DNA from: Patescibacteria group bacterium
GTDB lineage: Bacteria; Patescibacteriota; Patescibacteriia; Patescibacteriales; UBA12465
DNA: 64,000 nucleotides
NCBI GenBank assembly: GCA_041651195.1
Contig: JBAZJR010000003.1
Coordinates: 82,441 to 146,440 of the forward strand
Direction: 5' to 3'
Shown: one piece after another, positions 44,195 to 53,489 of the stretch
How the letters are laid out: each line of letters opens with the position of its first letter
How positions within the stretch are numbered: the first letter of the stretch is position 1
The notes under the pieces: model-generated
Told to the model about the DNA's origin: nothing
What the model saw: only the letters and a program-made list of their open reading frames with translations
Databases searched by the model: none
Made by a program: the position numbers and the translations under genes

Positions 44195-44266
44195 TCCCGG
44201 GTAGCGCAGCGGTAGCGCAGTTGGCTGTTAACCAATTGGTCGTCGGTTCGAATCCGACCCCGGGAG
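44195..44266 (+). tRNA. tRNA-Asn (anticodon GUU)
   Basis: Cloverleaf folded by hand: acceptor TCCCGGG/CCCGGGA, D-stem GCGC with GG loop, anticodon stem GTTGG/CCAAT with loop CTGTTAA (anticodon GTT), T-arm GTCGG-TTCGAAT-CCGAC, discriminator G. Confidence 0.9.
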
Positions 44267-44267
44267 C
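44247..44267 (+). repeat. attL core: 3' end of tRNA-Asn, direct repeat of 51422-51442
   Basis: 21-nt TTCGAATCCGACCCCGGGAGC identical at both sites. Confidence 0.85.
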
Positions 44268-44276
44268 ATAGAAAAG

Positions 44277-44304
44277 ACGAGAGTAAAATCTCGTTTTTTC
44301 TTTT
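44277..44304 (+). terminator. tRNA terminator hairpin
   Basis: ACGAGA-GTAAAA-TCTCGT followed by TTTTTT. Lies between tRNA end and integrase stop codon. Confidence 0.5.
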
Positions 44305-44306
44305 GT

Positions 44307-45449
44307 TCACGGGCGTATTTCTCGTTTTGACCAATCGGAATTTTGAACCCCCAAATTCTCGATTGTGACGCTATTGTGCCGTAAGTTTATAACTTGTGGC
44401 GTTTCTAACACTTTTATTGCGTCTCTTAAAGTGTGTTGTCCTAAATGCGCATAACGCATAGTCGTTCTAATGTCCGAGTGACCCATTAACTCTTTTATAG
44501 CGGTCATAGAGACCCCTTTCTCGGCTAATCGGGAGGCAAAGGTATGTCTGAGCTTATGCCAACCGATTTGGCGTAATTTTGCCTTATCACAAATCATGTG
44601 AATATTTGTCCGAGAGCATTCCGGTCGAAATCTTAATCCGTCCGGGCCTTTCAAAACAAAACCCTCTTTCGGCGATAAAGCGATTAGGTGATTATACAGG
44701 TCTTGCGTCATGGGAATATATCTAATCTTATTGCCTTTAGTCGAGCCTAAAACTCCGACCGAGAAATTGTCTTTGACTATAACTTGCTTTTTAAGGAAAT
44801 CAATCTTTTCCCAATTTAAGGCCATGAGTTCGCCGATACGCATTCCGGTATGTAGAGCCAAGAGAATCGCTGTCTTATAAGGCTCGGAAGCGGTCGCCAG
44901 TAAGCGATTAGCCTCTTCCTCGTTTAAGTAATCAAACTCTTCCGGGTCAGAGCGCAGAGGTCGAATTATTGGCACTTTATCTAGTTCGCCCCATTCGACA
45001 GCCGTTTTAAGACATTTCGCTAAAGTTCCCATTTGGCCGTTAATAGTTTTAGGCTTTAACCTTTTTAATTGCAGAGCTTTAAACTCTTCAATATCGAGGC
45101 TAGAAATCTCGTCTAATCTTTTTTTGCCGAAGAACGGCAAGAGGCATGATCTTAGATAAGTCTTTTTATTCTTAATTTCCGAGGGCTTATTATTAACTTC
45201 GACATACGACTTAACCCATTTTTCGGAAAATTCTTTGAGGGTTAAACATTTCCTTTTTTCTTTCGGAAATAAATCTTCGCCCCTGGTTAGCCGTTGCCTT
45301 AAAACCGCTTCATAAAATTGAGCCCCGGATCGAGTATTGGTTGGACTCGGTAGGCGGTATCTTCGCGCCTTAAAGCTGAAGTCCACCCACCATTTATTTG
45401 CACGCTTGATTGCACTCATAAATAATTTACTTAAATTTTTAAGGAGCAA
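44307..45449 (-). CDS. tyrosine-type site-specific integrase (phage integrase family)
   Basis: C-terminal catalytic box HTGMRIGEL...HKLRHTFASRL...GHSDIRTTMRYAHL (R..H..R..Y). 3' end abuts tRNA-Asn. Alternative start at Met11 (45419). Confidence 0.9.
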   Translation of the reverse strand: MLLKNLSKLFMSAIKRANKWWVDFSFKARRYRLPSPTNTRSGAQFYEAVLRQRLTRGEDLFPKEKRKCLTLKEFSEKWVKSYVEVNNKPSEIKNKKTYLRSCLLPFFGKKRLDEISSLDIEEFKALQLKRLKPKTINGQMGTLAKCLKTAVEWGELDKVPIIRPLRSDPEEFDYLNEEEANRLLATASEPYKTAILLALHTGMRIGELMALNWEKIDFLKKQVIVKDNFSVGVLGSTKGNKIRYIPMTQDLYNHLIALSPKEGFVLKGPDGLRFRPECSRTNIHMICDKAKLRQIGWHKLRHTFASRLAEKGVSMTAIKELMGHSDIRTTMRYAHLGQHTLRDAIKVLETPQVINLRHNSVTIENLGVQNSDWSKREIRP

Positions 45450-45598
45450 TACAAGAGCGCGGGGGTTCGCGTCAATTATTATTACTTTATCACAGGCTCT
45501 TAATTGCTGTCTATTTTAGGAATTATCTTGAAAATAGACACTTTGGTTCTTAAGTGTGCATATAATCAAGTTAATGATGTATATATTATTAAATTAGG

Positions 45599-45632
45599 AT
45601 TAGACCTTGCTTAGCCAAGCGTTAGGTCTAAT
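45599..45632. repeat. hairpin (8-bp stem ATTAGACC/GGTCTAAT)
   Basis: Inverted repeat in int-cargo intergenic region. Confidence 0.4.
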
Positions 45633-45644
45633 GTTTATCCGATC

Positions 45645-45701
45645 GCGTTTTTCTTTTTTCGGCTCGCTAGCAGAGCTCGCCGAAAAAAAGAAAAAAAGCG
45701 C
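45645..45701. repeat. long imperfect palindrome (bidirectional terminator-like)
   Basis: GCGTTTTTCTTTTTTCGGC...GCCGAAAAAAAGAAAAAAAGCGC arms around a GC core, symmetric A/T runs. Confidence 0.5.
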
Positions 45702-45726
45702 GTGCCGGAATAAACTATTAATAATC

Positions 45727-46010
45727 TAACCGATTGGGCTTGACCAAAATCTACGTAAAGATTTAGGTCAAGAAATTAGCCTTATTATTTCTAATCCTAG
45801 CAAATCAAAGTTACCGAAAGTTACGGGTAAAATTTAGGGTAAGAAAACGAGCTTATTTAATCTAATATTAAACAATCGAACTTTGACCATCTTCGGTCGA
45901 AAGAACGGTCAAAGAATTAGCTGTATTCTATTTGATGTTAGCAAAACAGGTTTGGATAAAATTTGGCTAAAGGTTTGGTCTAAGTTTTTTAATAAAAATC
46001 CAATAAAATT
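45727..46010 (+). repeat. four degenerate ~70-bp tandem repeats, each a hairpin followed by GGTCAAG-AAATTAGC-like box
   Basis: Units start about 45727, 45796, 45867, 45941. Recurring TTGACC...GGTCAAG(A)AATTAGC..TATT..TCTAAT/GTTAGCAAAA elements. Followed by strong hairpin AAACGTAAAT-GCACGTGCAG-ATTTACGTTT (46017-46046). Confidence 0.45.
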
Positions 46011-46225
46011 CTACAATATTAAAATAAACGTAAATGCACGTGCAGATTTACGTTTAGTTTTTAGGCTTATTTTTGATCTAATTTTTTTGACTTTTGAGAT
46101 CCTGGGTGGTATATTTTAAGTATATTTTTAGTGTTATCAGGGGCATGTCAATGCCTATTTCGAGGGATTAGTTCTAATTGGTTTGTTGATCGAAATAAAA
46201 TTAGCAAAAAGAATTCTTAAATTAT

Positions 46226-47758
46226 ATGAAAAAACAAACACTATCAAATGAGGCAACCGTAGTGAAGGCTTTAAAAGTCAATCAATGGCTTGATGTTTGG
46301 AAATCGGTTGATTTTGCTAAAAAAAATCATCGCAGAGAACCTGAAAAATGTTTTTACATTTTTTCATTATCTGCCAGACAGTTGCGCTCTTTGTCTGGAG
46401 TAAATCGTAGAGACGTAAAAGATGGGGTAAAAAGATCTCGCGATTTAGGAATACAGCGAGCTCATGAGCAATCTCGTTCTAGGAATATTGCTGAGTATAT
46501 TAAATATGGTTACCCATGGTCAGATTTAAGTAAATCTCAACGTGAAGATATTAGATTTAATGATCTCCGCAAACCAGGTTGGTTGCCAACTGCTATTGTG
46601 GTAAATATATTAACAAAAGATGACAGACGTAATGGGTTAGGTGTTGCGTCAAAGGATTTAATAACTATAAATAATAATGATAATAATGAATTTGTAGAAA
46701 TTAAAATACCAATGTCAAAGAGTAATAAGAAGTGGATCTCTGAGCAGGTTTTACCCCTAGAAGTTATTGATGGCCAACATAGATTACTGGCCTTTGATGA
46801 AAATATCGATGAAGATTATGAATTGCCGGTTGTTGCTTTTTATGGTTTAGATTTGAGCTGGCAAGCATATTTATTTTGGACTATAAATATAAAACCAAAA
46901 AGAATTAATCCCAGTCTTGCTTTTGATTTATATCCTCTTTTACGCACTGAAGATTGGTTAGATAGATTTGAAGGACATAAAGTTTATCGAGAAGCAAGGG
47001 CTCAAGAAATAGTAGAATCACTATGGTCTGAACCAATGAGTGCTTGGTATCATCGTATAAATATGTTAGGAGAAAGCGGGATTGCTTCCGTCACTCAGGC
47101 AGCCTGGATAAGAGCATTACTAAAAACATATATTAAAACTTCCGAAGGTAGAGGGGTAACTATAGGGGGTTTATTTGGGGCTCCGGCTGGTCACGATGAA
47201 ATGACTATACCTTGGAATCGTAGTCAACAGACCGCTTTATTAATTTATCTTTGGAATTCCATAGAAAAATTTACTAAAGAAACGTCGGCACTATGGACAA
47301 AAAAAATAAGAGCAACTGAATACAAACGTAAAATAAAAGGTGATCCAGCATTTTCTGGGCCGCATACACTTTTAAATAATGATCAAGGTATTTCAGTTGT
47401 TCTTAATATTTCAAATGACCTATTATTTTTAAATGCGGAAACGCTACAGCTTAAAAAATGGCGAGTTAGTCAAGAGTTTGGAGTATCAGAGGCCCTTGAA
47501 GATTTAATTAAAAAACAAAAAGATATTATTTTGTTTGTGAATAAAATTGCAAAAGCATTTACAACTTTTGACTGGAGATCTTCTGGGGCGGAAAAACTTA
47601 CAGACTCCGAAAGAACTCTTAAACTTTCATTTCGCGGCGGTAGCGGCTACAGAGAGTTTAGACGATTATTGCTTAAACATTTAATGAAAAATAGCGATTT
47701 AGCCGCCGACGCAAAGACAATTTTCAATAATCTTGGATTTGAGGAAGACTCTAATTGA
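46226..47758 (+). CDS. DGQHR-domain protein (DndB-like, ParB/Srx-fold superfamily)
   Basis: Exact DGQHR motif at residues 182-186 (nt 46769-46783) in context PLEVIDGQHRLLAF. 510 aa. First gene of island cargo operon. Confidence 0.65.
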   Translation: MKKQTLSNEATVVKALKVNQWLDVWKSVDFAKKNHRREPEKCFYIFSLSARQLRSLSGVNRRDVKDGVKRSRDLGIQRAHEQSRSRNIAEYIKYGYPWSDLSKSQREDIRFNDLRKPGWLPTAIVVNILTKDDRRNGLGVASKDLITINNNDNNEFVEIKIPMSKSNKKWISEQVLPLEVIDGQHRLLAFDENIDEDYELPVVAFYGLDLSWQAYLFWTINIKPKRINPSLAFDLYPLLRTEDWLDRFEGHKVYREARAQEIVESLWSEPMSAWYHRINMLGESGIASVTQAAWIRALLKTYIKTSEGRGVTIGGLFGAPAGHDEMTIPWNRSQQTALLIYLWNSIEKFTKETSALWTKKIRATEYKRKIKGDPAFSGPHTLLNNDQGISVVLNISNDLLFLNAETLQLKKWRVSQEFGVSEALEDLIKKQKDIILFVNKIAKAFTTFDWRSSGAEKLTDSERTLKLSFRGGSGYREFRRLLLKHLMKNSDLAADAKTIFNNLGFEEDSN

Positions 47759-47773
47759 TATATATACAACATA

Positions 47774-49141
47774 ATGGCCATAAATCCGCTTAAAGAATCT
47801 CTAAGAAATGCTTCTCGTGACTCTATTAAAGAGGCGATTAAAAATCTTCGTCCTCATTTTTTGTCTGGGCAATGGATTGGAACAGGTAATATTTATGCTA
47901 AATATTATAAAACGAATGCCTATAAAGATCTTCTTACGCGACGTTCTAGTTTAAAAGATAAACAAATTAAGGATTATATCGCGGCATCTGTTTTTAACCA
48001 TTGTGGCGATGGTTGGAGTCTGCTTGGACGAGCGCTTAGTCTACATATTAAGGGGGATGGTAATAGCTCTATTCATCTTGCTTATTATGCTGAACTAAGA
48101 GCAGCGATGTCTTTACTCGCATCTGAAGGTATCGGTGTTTTTAACAACCGACATGTTATTGTAAAAGATGGGGCTGTTGATCTTACTCCAAGTCTCAAGA
48201 GAAAAAATCGTAGTCTAGGAAGGACACATCAATTTGTTTGGATGGCCCTAGAACATTGGACAGATAGAAGATTATCAGCGGATACATTGGCTAATATCAT
48301 TTGTCCTGGATCAATTACTCTTTTTGAATGGTTAGATGCTTTCGGTGTTGCCAATAACATTCATCCAATTGGTAGCAAGTGGATGAGGTTATGGGGCATT
48401 GATATTAAACAATTCGGTGACGACCAAATATTACGAAATTATTCCAGTTATAGACCATCTAGAATACTTCCAAAATCAAATACAACCGCCCCACATTCGC
48501 TTGCTTTTTTTAGCGAACTTTGGCGTATGTGTGAGCCAAGCCCGTCATCCAGATTTAATGAAATTGATAAACATCTTTTAAGATCTAGTTTGTCACAAGC
48601 GTATAAGGCGGTATATGGTATAGAGCCTCACACGTCGACAAATCTAGATGATTATAGGGCTTGGATTGAAAAAAAAATTATAACTCTCAACTTCTCAGCG
48701 CCAGTACAAAAAGAATGGGTTAATTTTCTTACATGGGCCATACAGCCAGATGACTCAAAAATTATTGAGGAAGCGGGTAAGTTTACTTCTGTTGATGATC
48801 CAAGCCATCATTTACAAGTACTCGCAAGAGCTACACTTTTATTAAGAATTTCTACTGGTATTAACGCAAAGTTACTTAAGGAGGCCGGTTTTACAAAAAA
48901 AGATTTAGAATTTTGGTGGGGACCGTATGCTGTCGATAATGGAATAATTAAAAATGCTGGCGCTATATCTAATTTTTTAGATCTTTGGGATGATGTTAAT
49001 ATAGCTCTTCAAGATATAATGGTTTGGGAAAAATCACAAAGTAAAAATTATACTTATAGCGATTTAGTAATGGATATCTCTAAGCCAATTTTAAGATTAA
49101 GTGAGTGTGAGCGAATATCTCTGTGGGGTCTAGGAATATGA
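47774..49141 (+). CDS. hypothetical protein (455 aa), partner of DGQHR protein
   Basis: 15 nt after previous stop. Stop overlaps next start (ATGA at 49138-49141). No motif recognised. Confidence 0.5.
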   Translation: MAINPLKESLRNASRDSIKEAIKNLRPHFLSGQWIGTGNIYAKYYKTNAYKDLLTRRSSLKDKQIKDYIAASVFNHCGDGWSLLGRALSLHIKGDGNSSIHLAYYAELRAAMSLLASEGIGVFNNRHVIVKDGAVDLTPSLKRKNRSLGRTHQFVWMALEHWTDRRLSADTLANIICPGSITLFEWLDAFGVANNIHPIGSKWMRLWGIDIKQFGDDQILRNYSSYRPSRILPKSNTTAPHSLAFFSELWRMCEPSPSSRFNEIDKHLLRSSLSQAYKAVYGIEPHTSTNLDDYRAWIEKKIITLNFSAPVQKEWVNFLTWAIQPDDSKIIEEAGKFTSVDDPSHHLQVLARATLLLRISTGINAKLLKEAGFTKKDLEFWWGPYAVDNGIIKNAGAISNFLDLWDDVNIALQDIMVWEKSQSKNYTYSDLVMDISKPILRLSECERISLWGLGI

Positions 49142-50337
49142 AATACATGGGTTCAAAACGTTTTATGTTAAACAATGGGCTCGGGGATTTACTCCGCGAG
49201 CAGCTTCCTCGTGCAAATAGATTTATCGATCCATTTTGTGGCTCTGGAGGTATAATAAATTTTGTGGCTACAGATCAAAATTTTAAAGGAGAAATTATCG
49301 CTGGTGATCTGCAAAAATATGCTGTCGTCCTAGCTAAAGCCGTGATTGGACGAACTGAAATATTTGATGTTGAATATTTAAAAAATATTTGGATAGAAGA
49401 AGCAAAAAAAGGCTTAAATTCTTCAAAATTTTTAAATAGAATTGATGAAATCGATAAAAAATATCATAACGATATTAAACTAAGAGTAAAAAAAGCGAGA
49501 AAGCTTTGCGAATCTCCATCTCAAATCGGTCCTATTTGGAATGCCTATGGCGGCCACTATTTTAGTCCAAAGCAAGCGCTGGTACTCGACTATCTTTTAA
49601 AAACATTACCCAAACAAACTAAATACAGAAATGTTTGTTTGGCTGCTATAATTATTGCTGCCTCGAGAGCCGCCGCTTCTCCTGGCCACACCGCGCAACC
49701 TTTTCAGCCAACAAAAGGAGCTGGAAAATTTATTGAAATTTCATGGCACATAGATATTTTTAAATCTTGTGAAACTGCCCTAAAAGAGATCTCTATTTTA
49801 TATGCCAAGATAAAAGGAAAAGCGGTTGTTTCTGATGCAAAAAAGCTTATATCAAAATTAAAAAAGGGAGATCTGGTCCTTCTTGACCCACCTTATTCAG
49901 GCGTACAATATAGTCGCTTTTACCATGTACTTGAAACAATCGCCCGTGGTTATTGTGGAGAGATAACAGGGATTGGGCGTTATCCGGCTATTTCTGAACG
50001 TCCACAATCAGAATTTAGCAACGCAGGACAATCTCTTAAAGCGCTAGAACAGCTTTTGTCAGATTTATCAAAAAAAGAAGCTACGGTTATTTTTACTTTT
50101 CCCAAGGGTAGATGTAGTAATGGCTTGTCAGGAGATAAAGTTATTGAATTAGCAAGTAAATATTTTAATCTAGATAAAAATAAAAGCCGAATTCATGAGC
50201 ATGTTATTACAGGTAGATTTAGCACTCTGGGTGGCAACAATAAGCTTAATAAAAATAATCATGAAAAAAAGTCAAGGGTAAAGTCAGAAGAACTAGTATT
50301 ACTTTTAAAACCAAAAACTATTCAGCATAAAAAATAA
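49138..50337 (+). CDS. Dam-family (D12 class) N6-adenine DNA methyltransferase with C-terminal extension
   Basis: N-terminal KYMGSKRFML (cf. Dam KWAGGKRQLL), AdoMet motif I FIDPFCGSGGI, catalytic DPPY (LLDPPYSG, nt 49885-49896). ATG 49138 preferred over the track's upstream GTG at 49123. Confidence 0.7.
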   Translation: MKYMGSKRFMLNNGLGDLLREQLPRANRFIDPFCGSGGIINFVATDQNFKGEIIAGDLQKYAVVLAKAVIGRTEIFDVEYLKNIWIEEAKKGLNSSKFLNRIDEIDKKYHNDIKLRVKKARKLCESPSQIGPIWNAYGGHYFSPKQALVLDYLLKTLPKQTKYRNVCLAAIIIAASRAAASPGHTAQPFQPTKGAGKFIEISWHIDIFKSCETALKEISILYAKIKGKAVVSDAKKLISKLKKGDLVLLDPPYSGVQYSRFYHVLETIARGYCGEITGIGRYPAISERPQSEFSNAGQSLKALEQLLSDLSKKEATVIFTFPKGRCSNGLSGDKVIELASKYFNLDKNKSRIHEHVITGRFSTLGGNNKLNKNNHEKKSRVKSEELVLLLKPKTIQHKK

Positions 50338-50342
50338 AATTT

Positions 50343-51221
50343 ATGCATCAAGGAAAAAAGATTACAATTTATTTAGCTGCCGGTCTTCCGAAAGGAATAA
50401 GGGAAATAAGAATTGATCAATGGAGCGGTAAAGCCATTTGTGGTCCGCGCAATGCTTTAAGTGAGATTATCTCCTTGCCAGAAACAGAAAATGGAGCATG
50501 TGTTTATTTCTTAATAGGAAATTCTGATGAAGGTGGGTTGCTCGCTGTATATGTCGGGGAGGCTGACGGTTTTAAGGAGAGAATAAGAGATCATGATTAT
50601 AAAAAAGATTGGTGGCAGGATGTTGTTGTTTTTGTAAGTCAGGATGGATCGCTAACTAAGACAGGTATCCAGTATCTTGAGAGCGTTTGTATTGAACGCC
50701 TAATAAAAATTGGGAAATGCAATCTTAAGAACATCAATAAACCGAGCATGCCAACTATTCCAAAAGAAGATATAAGCGGTTTGGAGGTGTTTTATGAAAA
50801 TTTAGGAATTATAATGCCGTTACTCGGGTATGATATATTCGTTCAAGCAGAACTAATATCTGGAAAAGTGCTGGACGCCTCATCTGTTTTTACATGCAAA
50901 AAAGGAACAAATGTTATTGCTACTGGGCATCTTTTGGAAGATGGAAAAATGAAAGTTTTAAAATTATCTACGGCTTCATTAGAAGAAACTCCATCTTTTC
51001 AAACGCATCCTTACAAAAAACTTAGAGAAGAGCTTATTGCCATGAAACGAATTATTGCTCATGGGCCTGTTCTTATTTTTACCGATGATTATGTTTTTGA
51101 TAGCTCAAGCGCTGCCTGCGGAGTAATATTTGGGAGATCTGCCTCCGGTCCGTTGGAGTGGAAAAATAGCGATGGAGCTTCCCTTAAAGAGACTCTAAAT
51201 TCGAAATTGAAAGCTGAATAA
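50343..51221 (+). CDS. GIY-YIG-like nuclease domain protein with unknown C-terminal domain
   Basis: GACVYFLIG-(11 aa)-VYVGEADGFKERIRDH followed by conserved-position Glu (LESVCIERL) and Asn (KNINKP), matching GIY..YIG..R..H..E..N spacing. 292 aa. Confidence 0.55.
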   Translation: MHQGKKITIYLAAGLPKGIREIRIDQWSGKAICGPRNALSEIISLPETENGACVYFLIGNSDEGGLLAVYVGEADGFKERIRDHDYKKDWWQDVVVFVSQDGSLTKTGIQYLESVCIERLIKIGKCNLKNINKPSMPTIPKEDISGLEVFYENLGIIMPLLGYDIFVQAELISGKVLDASSVFTCKKGTNVIATGHLLEDGKMKVLKLSTASLEETPSFQTHPYKKLREELIAMKRIIAHGPVLIFTDDYVFDSSSAACGVIFGRSASGPLEWKNSDGASLKETLNSKLKAE

Positions 51222-51421
51222 CTATTTATAAAATAAACACGATTCTACCACCTCCTCTTGTATTGCTAGCGAAACAAAAAGTTGTGACGCTATTGTGACT
51301 GAAAAGTGGTAAAATCGTGATATTTCGGACTAAAACTGGTTAATCAAAAAAGTTAAAATATTCTCTAATGCTAGTAAAAATTTGCTAACATTAAATCATA
51401 TATAAAAATCTCGATTTTGTT

Positions 51422-51442
51422 TTCGAATCCGACCCCGGGAGC
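51422..51442 (+). repeat. attR core: direct repeat of tRNA-Asn 3' end
   Basis: TTCGAATCCGACCCCGGGAGC identical to 44247-44267. Followed by hairpin plus T-run (51455-51480). Confidence 0.85.
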
Positions 51443-51586
51443 TTAGGACAATGACGCCAATCTTGGCGTTATTCTTTTGTAATCAGAGCCAGCATCCGGA
51501 TTTAGTCAGCGGTTTATGGTTATTAAAAATTTACAGAATAGTATGAAATGTGCTATTTTAGTTTTATAAACTAAAATTATAAATTT

Positions 51587-52795
51587 ATGTCTTTTGGATG
51601 GCCGACCCCGTCGTCTGATAATTCGATAAGTAAAGCTGAAGGCGAAAAATTTATTGAAAGTGATAAAAAAAAGTTTGGAAGGAAAGGATATTCTGAGGAG
51701 CGGAATATTTATGAGCAGAGGCGTCAGGCCGTGGAAAATTATTTGATTGACCCGGAAAATTTAAAAATGGTAGAGACTGAGTTTGGCTCAGCCAAGGTCC
51801 GGACGGTTATCGCGCGTTGGGATGCTCCCGAAGATCTTAGGGAAGTCGGAGCCAAACCAGATACCTTGCGGATTACCATATATGTTCCGGGGATGTTTGA
51901 ATGTGATAAGCCTAATTTTGGTAACTATCCTCTAGAAATAAAATTAGCCGGTACGATGCTAATGGGTGATGCCGAATCTTTCGTGGTTTTAAAGGCTGAA
52001 GGTTTGAATAAGGAGGCCTATATTGACGATGGCGGACAGGGACGAGGACAAGGTTTGGTGGCGGAAGAAGCCGTCAAGCAACTGGAGAAGTCATTACAAG
52101 CAATGAAACAAAAGATGGGGCTAGGAGAAGAAGCTAAAATAGAATTTGAGGTCGTTGGATCCTCTGAGGGCAGTACTCAGGGAGCGAGTATCGCCGAGAA
52201 AATAGTTGAGCGCAATTTAGGCAAGGTTAATGCTTTTACCTCAATTGGTGGAGTGGGCTTAGCTGGCGGAGAGGATCAAACAGAAGTCGCTGTTATTAAT
52301 CAACTGAGAGCGAAGATAGATCCCAAAAATGAATATCAAATGCCAAAAACTTATTCGGAAGTCGGAGAGGATACTTTTTTAATAAATCGTCAGATGATCG
52401 GCGACGCTAAGCAGGGCGGGTATGAATATTCTTTAGGCAAAGCTTATGTTGATCCTAAAGGTGATATTAGGAATGTCGCTAAGTGGGGTTGGAGATATTT
52501 AAAAAGTAAATTGGGTCTGGCCGAAGAAGTCCCTCACGAACGGGTGCAGGCGGTTTTTATTAAAAATCATGACTTTGATAAGTTAGCTACGAATGGGGTT
52601 CCAATTGTGGTTTTAGCTGGCTCCGAGGATAGAATATTCCCGGCGGCCGAGATTCAAAAAGGAGTTGAAGATTTGCGGTCACGGGGAGGCAAAGCATTGT
52701 TATTAATTACCAATATGGGACACAGCTTTCCGCACGAGAACCCATCAGGCGCCGCTATGGCCTTAAGATTATTTAGAAATAAAGCTGGAATATAG
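51587..52795 (+). CDS. hypothetical protein with alpha/beta-hydrolase-like C-terminal half
   Basis: GSSEG nucleophile-elbow-like (GxSxG) in VVGSSEGSTQG, downstream Asp (GSEDRIFP) and near-C-terminal His (GHSFPHE). AT-rich composition like the island. Confidence 0.45.
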   Translation: MSFGWPTPSSDNSISKAEGEKFIESDKKKFGRKGYSEERNIYEQRRQAVENYLIDPENLKMVETEFGSAKVRTVIARWDAPEDLREVGAKPDTLRITIYVPGMFECDKPNFGNYPLEIKLAGTMLMGDAESFVVLKAEGLNKEAYIDDGGQGRGQGLVAEEAVKQLEKSLQAMKQKMGLGEEAKIEFEVVGSSEGSTQGASIAEKIVERNLGKVNAFTSIGGVGLAGGEDQTEVAVINQLRAKIDPKNEYQMPKTYSEVGEDTFLINRQMIGDAKQGGYEYSLGKAYVDPKGDIRNVAKWGWRYLKSKLGLAEEVPHERVQAVFIKNHDFDKLATNGVPIVVLAGSEDRIFPAAEIQKGVEDLRSRGGKALLLITNMGHSFPHENPSGAAMALRLFRNKAGI

Positions 52796-52986
52796 TTTTT
52801 ACAATTTTTTTTATTTTTTTATTGAGTGCGAGCGTATAATTTATTTATCTGATTTTGGTATATATGTTCTATTATGAGTAGTCATAAAATAGATTCGTGC
52901 TTCCTTTATCACGCCGAGTTATAAAAAAGAGGCTATAATCAGTAGCCTCTTTTATCTTATCATGTTTTGTAGATTAACTATGGCAA

Positions 52987-53253
52987 TTATAGAGACAGCC
53001 AAGCAGTATATGCAGAATTAAGATTTTTGGCTTCATCTGCGCTAATGTCTAAATTTTCAAAATTTTCAAAACCCTTGTTTTTCATTTCTGTAACTAAAGA
53101 ATCAATCTCACTCCCAATGCCATTTTGATCGAAATTTACTGAGTCTCCCGACCTGTCGAATTCTGCGGCTATTCTAGCCGCTAGCCCTTTTGCCGTCATG
53201 GCTAGCTGTTCTTTACTTGTCTTATTCATTTCGAAAGATTTTTCACCTATCAT
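52987..53253 (-). CDS. hypothetical small protein
   Basis: 88 aa minus-strand ORF in AT-rich region. Confidence 0.3.
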   Translation of the reverse strand: MIGEKSFEMNKTSKEQLAMTAKGLAARIAAEFDRSGDSVNFDQNGIGSEIDSLVTEMKNKGFENFENLDISADEAKNLNSAYTAWLSL

Positions 53254-53489
53254 ATACTTATTGTTTAATAATAGCTTATATTTATTATATCACTAGTAAA
53301 TAAATAAACAAGAGGGGCTTTAATTGACAAATATTACTATATGTGATAAATTATCCTAATTCCTAACGACTGGAATTATGTGGTAAAGAAAAATACCATG
53401 AAAGGCATGTAGCCAACAAAATCCGTTCTCTGGCGACGGTCGCTAGATAGTCCCCCATGGTGCTGGGACAATAAACTGCACATTAAAAA

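Follow-up and report, generated by a model that had tools for sequence, protein, structure and literature searches.

Transfer RNA genes are the targets of islands of the P4-integrase type, and the high-pathogenicity island of Yersinia sits at asn tRNA genes. In actinomycetes, integrative elements of the pSAM2 type have a rep-xis-int module, and in P4-like satellites and defence islands a conserved backbone is combined with a variable defence hotspot. Here we describe an island of about 7.2 kb at the tRNA-Asn(GUU) gene of a 64,000-nucleotide (nt) stretch of DNA, referred to as the window, which belongs to a metagenome-assembled genome. The flanking genes (encoding DUF5671, ScpA, ScpB, peptidase S11, GtrA, DnaG, sigma-70 and a PEP-utilizer-domain protein) and the names of the database matches place the host among the uncultured Patescibacteria (Candidate Phyla Radiation, CPR), near Candidatus Falkowbacteria. 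We consider it very probable that segment 44247-51442 is an integrase-built mobile island, a cut-down member of a rep-xis-int family, which carries a defence-like cassette. The initial annotation of the window had proposed a tRNA-Asn-targeted island with intact attachment (att) sites and integrase, and comparison with other Patescibacteria genomes supported this proposal.

Attachment sites and integrase

ARAGORN detected a single tRNA in the whole window, a tRNA-Asn(gtt) gene on the plus strand at 44195-44267, which is intact, has no intron and is the integration target. The Rfam tRNA model matched it with 71.5 bits across 44195-44266, so that the annotated start at 44195 was confirmed and the 3' end lies at 44267 according to ARAGORN and at 44266 according to Rfam. 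The 21-nt sequence TTCGAATCCGACCCCGGGAGC is found exactly twice in the window, in both cases on the plus strand and with 21 of 21 nt identical: at 44247-44267 (attL core) and at 51422-51442 (attR core). Re-inspection therefore showed that the recurrence of the tRNA 3' end, as initially reported, is an exact repeat. A match turned up in none of 100 dinucleotide-preserving shuffles, and the number expected by chance is about 3e-8; the repeat reaches 25 nt if one mismatch is allowed. The attL core covers the T-loop, the 3' strands of the T-stem and of the acceptor stem, the discriminator base and one further base. This 3' part of the tRNA gene is the copy of the core that was supplied by the element, and the attR core is the displaced original 3' end of tRNA-Asn. 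The two cores delimit an island (44247-51442) whose interior extends from 44268 to 51421.

A terminator scan found a hairpin after each junction, in agreement with the initial annotation. The left one, at 44270-44301, is bidirectional, lies inside the left arm of the element (P' arm) and is predicted to end both the tRNA and the int transcripts. The right one, on the plus strand at 51450-51473, lies in host DNA just beyond the island and corresponds to the displaced native terminator of tRNA-Asn.

The integrase gene is encoded on the minus strand at 44307-45419, with its stop codon at 44307, so that 39 nt separate it from the tRNA (40 nt had been annotated). The open reading frame (ORF) lister placed the start at TTG 45449; we took ATG 45419 as the real start, because the resulting protein of 370 aa has the length of all its homologues, with 99-100% coverage. 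The protein matched Pfam Phage_integrase (2e-31) and Phage_int_SAM_3 and the PHROG 1 integrase family (4e-66), and its catalytic residues (R...HxxR...H...Y) aligned with those of the structures of XerA (5hxy), integrase 5c6k and HP1 integrase. Taken together, profile matches, structure alignment and homologues bear out the annotation of a full-length tyrosine integrase with its catalytic box beside the tRNA.

Both ends of the island carry arms that are conserved in the element family. The P' arm (44268-44400, plus strand) was delimited from an alignment of the attL regions of the window and of the related loci L017, L018 and L014. The P arm (51240-51421, plus strand), a conserved non-coding stretch of about 180 nt on the right-hand side of the element, was delimited from the attR regions of the window, L017, L014 and the two of L018 (L018a and L018b). 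The 15-mer TGTGACGCTATTGTG has only two copies in the window (0.06 expected), one at 44364-44378 in the P' arm, within the 3' end of int, and one at 51283-51297 in the P arm, and it is kept in both arms of every element compared (five att regions). In the reconstructed attP, a 15-mer stands on each side of the core, about 100-125 nt away from it. Arm-type integrase sites are arranged in this way, and the 15-mers are most likely candidate arm-type sites that would be bound by the N-terminal domain of the integrase. A 13-mer, CTCTTGTATTGCT, also occurs exactly twice (0.09 expected), with one copy in the int leader (45445-45457, minus strand) and the other where the P arm begins (51255-51267, plus strand); both copies are kept in related elements, and the motif may be a second, candidate protein-binding site.

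The anatomy of the two junctions suggests how the island would have been formed. A circular form with attP (P arm, 21-nt core and P' arm) would have recombined with attB, that is, the last 21 nt of the tRNA-Asn gene, in a reaction that the element's own tyrosine integrase would catalyse. The core of the element would rebuild an intact tRNA at the left junction and bring its own terminator, and the original tRNA end, together with the native terminator, would be shifted 7.2 kb downstream. The predicted attB is ...CCAATTGGTCGTCGG-TTCGAATCCGACCCCGGGAGC-TTAGGACAATGACGCCAATC (in short form, GGTCGTCGG-core-TTAGGACAATGACGCC), and the predicted attP is ...AAATCTCGATTTTGT-TTTCGAATCCGACCCCGGGAGC-ATAGAAAAGACGAGAGTAAAATC (in short form, GATTTTGTT-core-ATAGAAAAGACGAG).

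The composition of the island is clearly different from that of its surroundings. The guanine-plus-cytosine (GC) content is 36.2% in the interior as compared to 48.6% in the rest of the window, and 425 windows of 7.15 kb taken outside the island had a mean of 49.3%, with a standard deviation of 1.7% and a minimum of 45.5%, so that the island lies about 7 standard deviations under comparable windows. At third codon positions (GC3), the cargo genes have 23-29% GC and the flanking core genes 50-70%. The AT-rich interior that had been noticed by eye was thus confirmed by the calculation of GC and GC3.

The stretch of about 2 kb just past attR (51443-53489) also has a low GC content (39%; GC3 0.39 and 0.31). 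It contains an ORF of 402 aa with weak likeness to alpha/beta-hydrolases (51587-52795) and a minus-strand ORF of 88 aa (52987-53253). This stretch has no counterpart in the flanks of the related loci, and neither a third att copy nor an arm 15-mer was found in it; it may be older DNA acquired at the same hotspot.

Loss of the excisionase and replication genes

In the relatives L015, L017 and L018, a gene of 65 aa lies directly upstream of int. Its product was recognised by the NCBIfam excisionase model TIGR01764 (58.4 bits, cutoff 28.8) and by Pfam HTH_17. Moreover, in L017 and L018 a rolling-circle rep gene stands directly upstream of the excisionase gene, in the order rep-xis-int, and in L024 a rep gene precedes int. 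The rep genes of L017, L018, L023 and L024 matched REP_ORF2-G2P with E-values from 1e-20 to 1e-22; this is the significant match, and a RepSA signal was weak and below threshold.

The window has a different arrangement. The leader of the int operon (45420-45500, minus strand), a conserved sequence (ATGATAGAGTAATA...CTTGTATTGCTCCTTAAAAATTTAA) that was compared with those of L015, L017 and L018, stands ahead of the excisionase gene in the relatives and is fused straight to the int start in the window. In fact, the CTTGTATTGCTCCTTAAAAATTTAA end of the leader abuts the start of int, and about 205 nt containing the excisionase ORF are cleanly gone, with the junction at about 45430. A Xis-like sequence gave no tblastn match at E<=1 across the 64-kb window, the Rep proteins of the relatives found no remnant in the island (E>0.8), and tblastn with the relatives' Rep, Xis and HTH proteins against island and window revealed no remnants.

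Where the relatives have rep and xis, the window contains a 776-nt AT-rich spacer, mapped as non-coding at 45501-46225. It includes a bidirectional terminator-like palindrome (45648-45694) and a promoter-like site (TTGACT-17-TATATT with a TG element, 46087-46115) ahead of the cargo operon; no Rfam family of non-coding RNA was found in it at gathering score. Between these two features lie direct repeats of about 70 nt, degenerate and three to four in number (45738-46020). Each repeat opens with a short hairpin-like motif, the mean column identity is 63%, and the repeats are not kept in the relatives. One possibility is that they act as operators for the DndB-like cargo protein, another that they are vestiges of iterons.

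Judged from its sequence, the island is a reduced derivative in which int and the att sites are intact and xis and rep have been lost. The initial annotation had considered it possibly still excisable, on the grounds of intact repeats and a full-length integrase. Both of these observations held; the conclusion drawn from them is weakened and has become doubtful, because the excisionase gene has been deleted and there is no replication gene. The gene content indicates that excision is probably rare or helper-dependent, and that the island is probably locked in unless help is provided in trans.

Related elements in other Patescibacteria

The integrase has many close relatives. In at least three other genomes they lie, like that of the window, beside a tRNA-Asn gene, and in the three loci described here the distance is 40 nt. 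The integrase of L017 is 80% identical to that of the window and belongs to a 6.1-kb island with two cores. In L018, where the integrase is 70% identical, three cores delimit a 7.2-kb island and a 1.9-kb tandem remnant. In both loci the island lies in the same gene block as in the window (DUF5671-ScpA-ScpB-S11-GtrA-DnaG-sigma70). In L024 (83% identity) the neighbourhood is different, and one core was seen at the tRNA end on a short contig. The 21-mer core is also present at the L014 element.

The cargo of these elements varies from copy to copy. The only homologue of the window's four cargo proteins in L017 and L018 was a short and distant DndB protein of L017. The cargo encodes this short DndB with HEPN_AbiV in L017, NERD and DUF4145 proteins in L018, and PIN, DpnII and DUF2726 proteins in L014. 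From these sequence comparisons, the island appears to be one member of a family of integrase-built islands of Patescibacteria (Falkowbacteria-like).

The 90%-identity cluster of the integrase comprises 20 distinct sequences from long Patescibacteria contigs, and the nine that were retrieved have only a handful of differences from the integrase of the window. The flank protein and the 455-aa cargo protein (see below) are each the sole member of their own cluster. In genome and metagenome contig scans and in a protein search, the best relative of the flank protein was 67% identical and the next 53%, with no relative between 67% and 100% identity; the host lineage is poorly represented in these collections. 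The backbone is thus far more widespread than the host lineage or the cargo, which argues for its horizontal spread.

The 67% relative of the flank protein is found in L004, the nearest relative of the host, where the PEP-utilizer gene is followed by tRNA-Asn without an integrase. The DNA downstream of this tRNA is unrelated to the right flank of the window, and its GC content is 30.8% as compared to 42.4% for that host. The tRNA-Asn site behaves as a variable hotspot, and L004 is not a strict attB.

Some arrangements found at these loci are more complex. In L018 (2102-11173), which has three 21-nt cores, the 1.9-kb tandem segment has its own conserved P arm and no integrase, and an almost identical terminator hairpin comes after each of the two distal cores; this arrangement looks like the remnant of a tandem array. 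In L014 (11113-11291) and L023 (1406-1500), whose integrases are 85% and 82% identical to that of the window, the junction on the integrase side has, in place of tRNA-Asn, a longer pseudo-core, GGTTCGAACATCATCTATTCTCCTGAGC and TGTTCCAATTGTATCCCATCCTCCGAGC, respectively, and in L023 genes of a further element with a Rep lie ahead of this junction. These junctions could represent a secondary site or a composite or tandem array. The L023 contig, 7.4 kb long, showed no terminal overlap.

At three of the loci, a group I intron splits the anticodon loop of tRNA-Asn(GTT): L004 (7860-8489), L017 (11153-11800, minus strand) and L024 (2488-2800, minus strand). The Rfam Intron_gpI scores were 88.6, 80.7 and 95 bits, respectively, and the split tRNAs were missed by ARAGORN. 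The intron of L004 holds an HNH-like ORF of 102 aa. In L017 and L024 the island is integrated downstream of the intron, in the 3' exon. The L017 locus needs some caution, since in its region 1-3000 genes for TonB-dependent receptor/SusC-like proteins, unusual for Patescibacteria, lie on one side and Patescibacteria-type genes on the other, and the contig may be a chimeric long-read contig.

Alternative explanations

The island might have kept full autonomy and still be able to excise and transfer. The intact integrase, the two perfect 21-nt cores, the conservation of the 15-mer in both arms and a composition that has not ameliorated are all in line with this possibility, and other assemblies break near the ends of the island: contig L001 ends 55 nt into the island, L002 within the tRNA and L003 8 nt short of attR. 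However, the excisionase of L015, L017 and L018 is cleanly missing, nothing Xis-like is present in 64 kb, and there is no rep gene. Also, the breaks, such as that of L001 at 55 nt past the left boundary, are not where a mix of empty and occupied sites would put them, and the exact attP and attL patterns are absent from viral contigs. We therefore judge an autonomous element unlikely. The idea of a mixed population, drawn from the contig ends, was itself rejected, because the break points do not fit and all visible junctions are occupied. A chimeric join at the short tRNA-derived repeat is extremely improbable. The source is a metagenome-assembled genome and the jump in GC is abrupt; nevertheless, the attL junction was reproduced in assembly ERZ27247363 (L001) and the attR junction in SRR8542065 (L003), the same architecture recurs in several genomes, and the 21-nt repeat is shorter than the k-mers of those assemblers. 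Since both junctions were replicated in independent assemblies, mis-assembly was ruled out. The remnant of a decayed prophage or phage satellite would explain why the integrase matches PHROG 1 and why the rep genes of the relatives carry REP_ORF2-G2P, a domain also known from single-stranded DNA phages. We regard it as very unlikely, because no capsid, packaging, lysis or satellite-type genes were found in the island or in its 6-7-kb relatives. The only PHROG matches in the island were those of the integrase and the methyltransferase and one to a family of unknown function, and a prophage was ruled out on this absence of phage genes. Moreover, the integrase is about 28% identical at most to any integrase of phage records, two integrase loci of viral contigs were only 27-29% identical, and no att-junction pattern matched.

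Some points weigh against an island that was acquired whole and then reduced. The loss of excision is deduced from gene content, and an excisionase could come from elsewhere in the genome; besides, some integrases can bring about a low level of excision with no excisionase present. Neither scans of genome and metagenome contigs nor a full protein search, in both cases with the upstream flank protein as query, found an isogenic empty attB, nor was an attP junction found, and integration and mobility are read from structure and comparison. In addition, the identity of the integrase to those of L017 (80%) and L018 (70%) ranks like that of the host DnaG (66% and 51%), and part of the history could be vertical descent of a resident integrase with turnover of the cargo. 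Taken to its end, this would mean that the integrase has long resided at the tRNA-Asn hotspot and is vertically inherited, that the cargo alone turns over by tandem integration, recombination and deletion, and that the 7.2 kb was never acquired whole. Such a history would account for the presence of the integrase beside tRNA-Asn in the syntenic L017 and L018, for the tandem or composite arrays (three cores in L018, pseudo-core junctions in L014 and L023) and for the GC content of the integrase gene (42%), which is intermediate between those of the cargo (35-38%) and of the host (49%). It is improbable in our judgement, given that L004, as near to the host of the window as L017, has no integrase, that the L024 element is found at tRNA-Asn in another gene neighbourhood, and that 20 sequences fall in the 90% cluster of the integrase (the nine retrieved being near-identical) although no relative of the flank protein exceeds 67%. 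On balance, we retain as very probable the integrase-built island that has been cut down from a rep-xis-int element.

The cargo operon and its occurrence in other genomes

The cargo consists of four packed genes on the plus strand, separated by a gap of 15 nt, an overlap of 4 nt and a gap of 5 nt, and is one operon. Gene 1 (46226-47758) encodes a DGQHR/DndB-like protein of 510 aa belonging to the ParB/Srx superfamily. It matched the NCBIfam DGQHR model TIGR03187 (2.9e-21), Pfam DndB (4.9e-10) and, weakly, PADLOC DpdB; its equivalog scores are far under the cutoffs (65 vs. 450 for DndB and 25 vs. 300 for DpdB).

Gene 2 (47774-49141) encodes an all-alpha protein of 455 aa with no family assignment, always adjoining the DGQHR gene. 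No match was found in Pfam, NCBIfam, PADLOC, PHROGs or PDB sequences, and Foldseek searches against PDB and BFVD gave nothing under E=0.03. In an alignment of 60 sequences, the invariant residues were H101, Y104, Y105, E107, R109, T151, H152, D210, D217 and R221-N222...Y226. The protein may carry a putative HEPN-like helical domain: its RNxxxY motif is invariant, no RxxxxH is, and the canonical HEPN Rx4-6H motif could not be placed.

Gene 3 (49138-50337) encodes a D12 N6-adenine DNA methyltransferase, recognised by Pfam MethyltransfD12 (2.6e-15) and PADLOC MTase_II (1.6e-20). The ORF lister gave a start at GTG 49123; the likely start is ATG 49138, which overlaps the stop codon of gene 2 (ATGA), and the same 4-nt overlap is found in L008. 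With its FxGxG and DPPY motifs, it is an active-looking methyltransferase on sequence grounds. Gene 4 (50343-51221) encodes a protein of 292 aa that matched the PADLOC candidate PDC-S14 over residues 1-285 (6.9e-81), Pfam DUF4357 in its C-terminal part (5.6e-16) and PHROG 12629 (function unknown). No demonstrated function of PDC-S14 was found in the literature. The N-terminus has a weak GIY-YIG likeness (E=0.14), and a single-sequence AlphaFold model, with a predicted local distance difference test (pLDDT) score of 35, was unusable.

The 455-aa family is uniform, with a length of about 450 aa, and had more than 860 matches in a collection clustered at 90% and about 1,100 clusters at 50%. In every context examined, its gene immediately follows a DGQHR gene (about 505 aa), with a D12 methyltransferase gene to one side. 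The DGQHR/455-aa pair ranges over Patescibacteria, Alphaproteobacteria, cyanobacteria and a plasmid of Zymomonas mobilis ZM4. All four genes of the cassette are present in the Patescibacteria-like L020, and three genes with a truncated fourth in L021, also Patescibacteria-like. Three genes are found in L008 (Pacebacteria) and, with the methyltransferase first, in L010 (a 4.2-Mb contig of an uncultured bacterium) and L011 (Reyranella). On the Zymomonas mobilis ZM4 plasmid pZZM405 (L022), they are annotated as DGQHR protein, hypothetical protein and Dam. Because the methyltransferases of the distant cassettes have no detectable homology to that of the window, the conserved core is the pair of DGQHR and 455-aa proteins, with a swappable Dam-type methylase.

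In two Pacebacteria-like genomes the cassette adjoins a tRNA-Gln gene (L008, 3075-12555; L020, 7393-13172). The L008 copy is preceded by a serine recombinase gene, which overlaps the tRNA at its 3' end, and is accompanied by a Phage_CRI rep gene. Since the backbone of L008 is a different one, the cassette rides on at least two unrelated integrative backbones. The GC content of the window cassette (about 36%) agrees with that of the L008 and L020 hosts (36-38%) but differs from the 49% of its own host, which points to a fairly recent import from a low-GC Patescibacteria donor.

The likeliest function of the cassette, proposed here as a hypothesis, is an anti-phage defence similar to restriction-modification. 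The methyltransferase would mark the host DNA, and the ParB-like NTPase/nuclease, together with its obligate 455-aa partner, would sense or attack unmarked DNA or trigger a HEPN-type effector; proteins with the DGQHR/ParB fold can be nucleases. The DUF4357 protein would be an add-on nuclease. Our working hypothesis may thus be summarised as a restriction-modification-like or abortive-infection hybrid. A literature search of limited scope found no description of the trio formed by the DGQHR protein, the 455-aa protein and the methyltransferase. Tentatively, and as a possibility that we place somewhat below even chances, the trio would be an undescribed methylation-linked anti-phage system, and at the same time the island would belong to an uncatalogued family of 6-7-kb rep-xis-int replicons that shuttle defence cassettes between Patescibacteria via tRNA-Asn genes, including intron-split ones.

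Comparison with known systems

The island is a clean and well-delimited example of its kind, with exact attL and attR, predicted attB and attP and candidate arm sites, and its integrase family is widespread in Patescibacteria. In these bacteria, which are not yet genetically manipulable, a small module for site-specific integration at a universal tRNA gene could prove useful as a tool. The comparison also shows defence-like cassettes moving on minimal integrative backbones among very small, host-dependent bacteria. The trio is a testable candidate defence system, with a copy on a plasmid of the tractable Zymomonas mobilis ZM4.

As regards the cargo, the closest described systems are Dnd and Dpd on the one hand and Type II restriction-modification with a Dam-type methylase on the other. 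The likeness consists in gene 1, which passes the DGQHR model, and in the D12 adenine methyltransferase with its DPPY motif. A Dnd or Dpd system was ruled out, the partner genes being absent: the cassette has no dndACDE, dndFGH or dpdA, and only the D12 methyltransferase accompanies the DGQHR protein. As regards Type II systems, no restriction endonuclease of that type could be recognised in the cassette, and the 455-aa partner is in no described family.

As regards the backbone, L017 and L018 resemble pSAM2 in the order of rolling-circle rep, xis and int at a tRNA attachment site and in the weak RepSA signal. Unlike pSAM2, the element of the window is without rep and xis, and no FtsK-like transfer gene was found in the family members examined. 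With P4-like satellites the family shares a conserved backbone of int and att arms that carries unrelated, defence-flavoured cargo in each copy; it differs from them in that it has no satellite or phage genes, is much smaller and belongs to a different phylum.

With respect to the Yersinia high-pathogenicity island and other P4-type islands, the island of the window is only 7.2 kb long, resides in a Patescibacteria/CPR host, carries defence-like rather than virulence or metabolic cargo and is missing the recombination directionality factor. In common with them it has the insertion at the 3' end of a tRNA gene (tRNA-Asn, as in the Yersinia island), the regenerated tRNA, the short repeat, the adjacent integrase and the foreign composition. 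Mechanistically, with a tyrosine integrase acting at a tRNA 3' end, it is a classical island and an ordinary kind of element.

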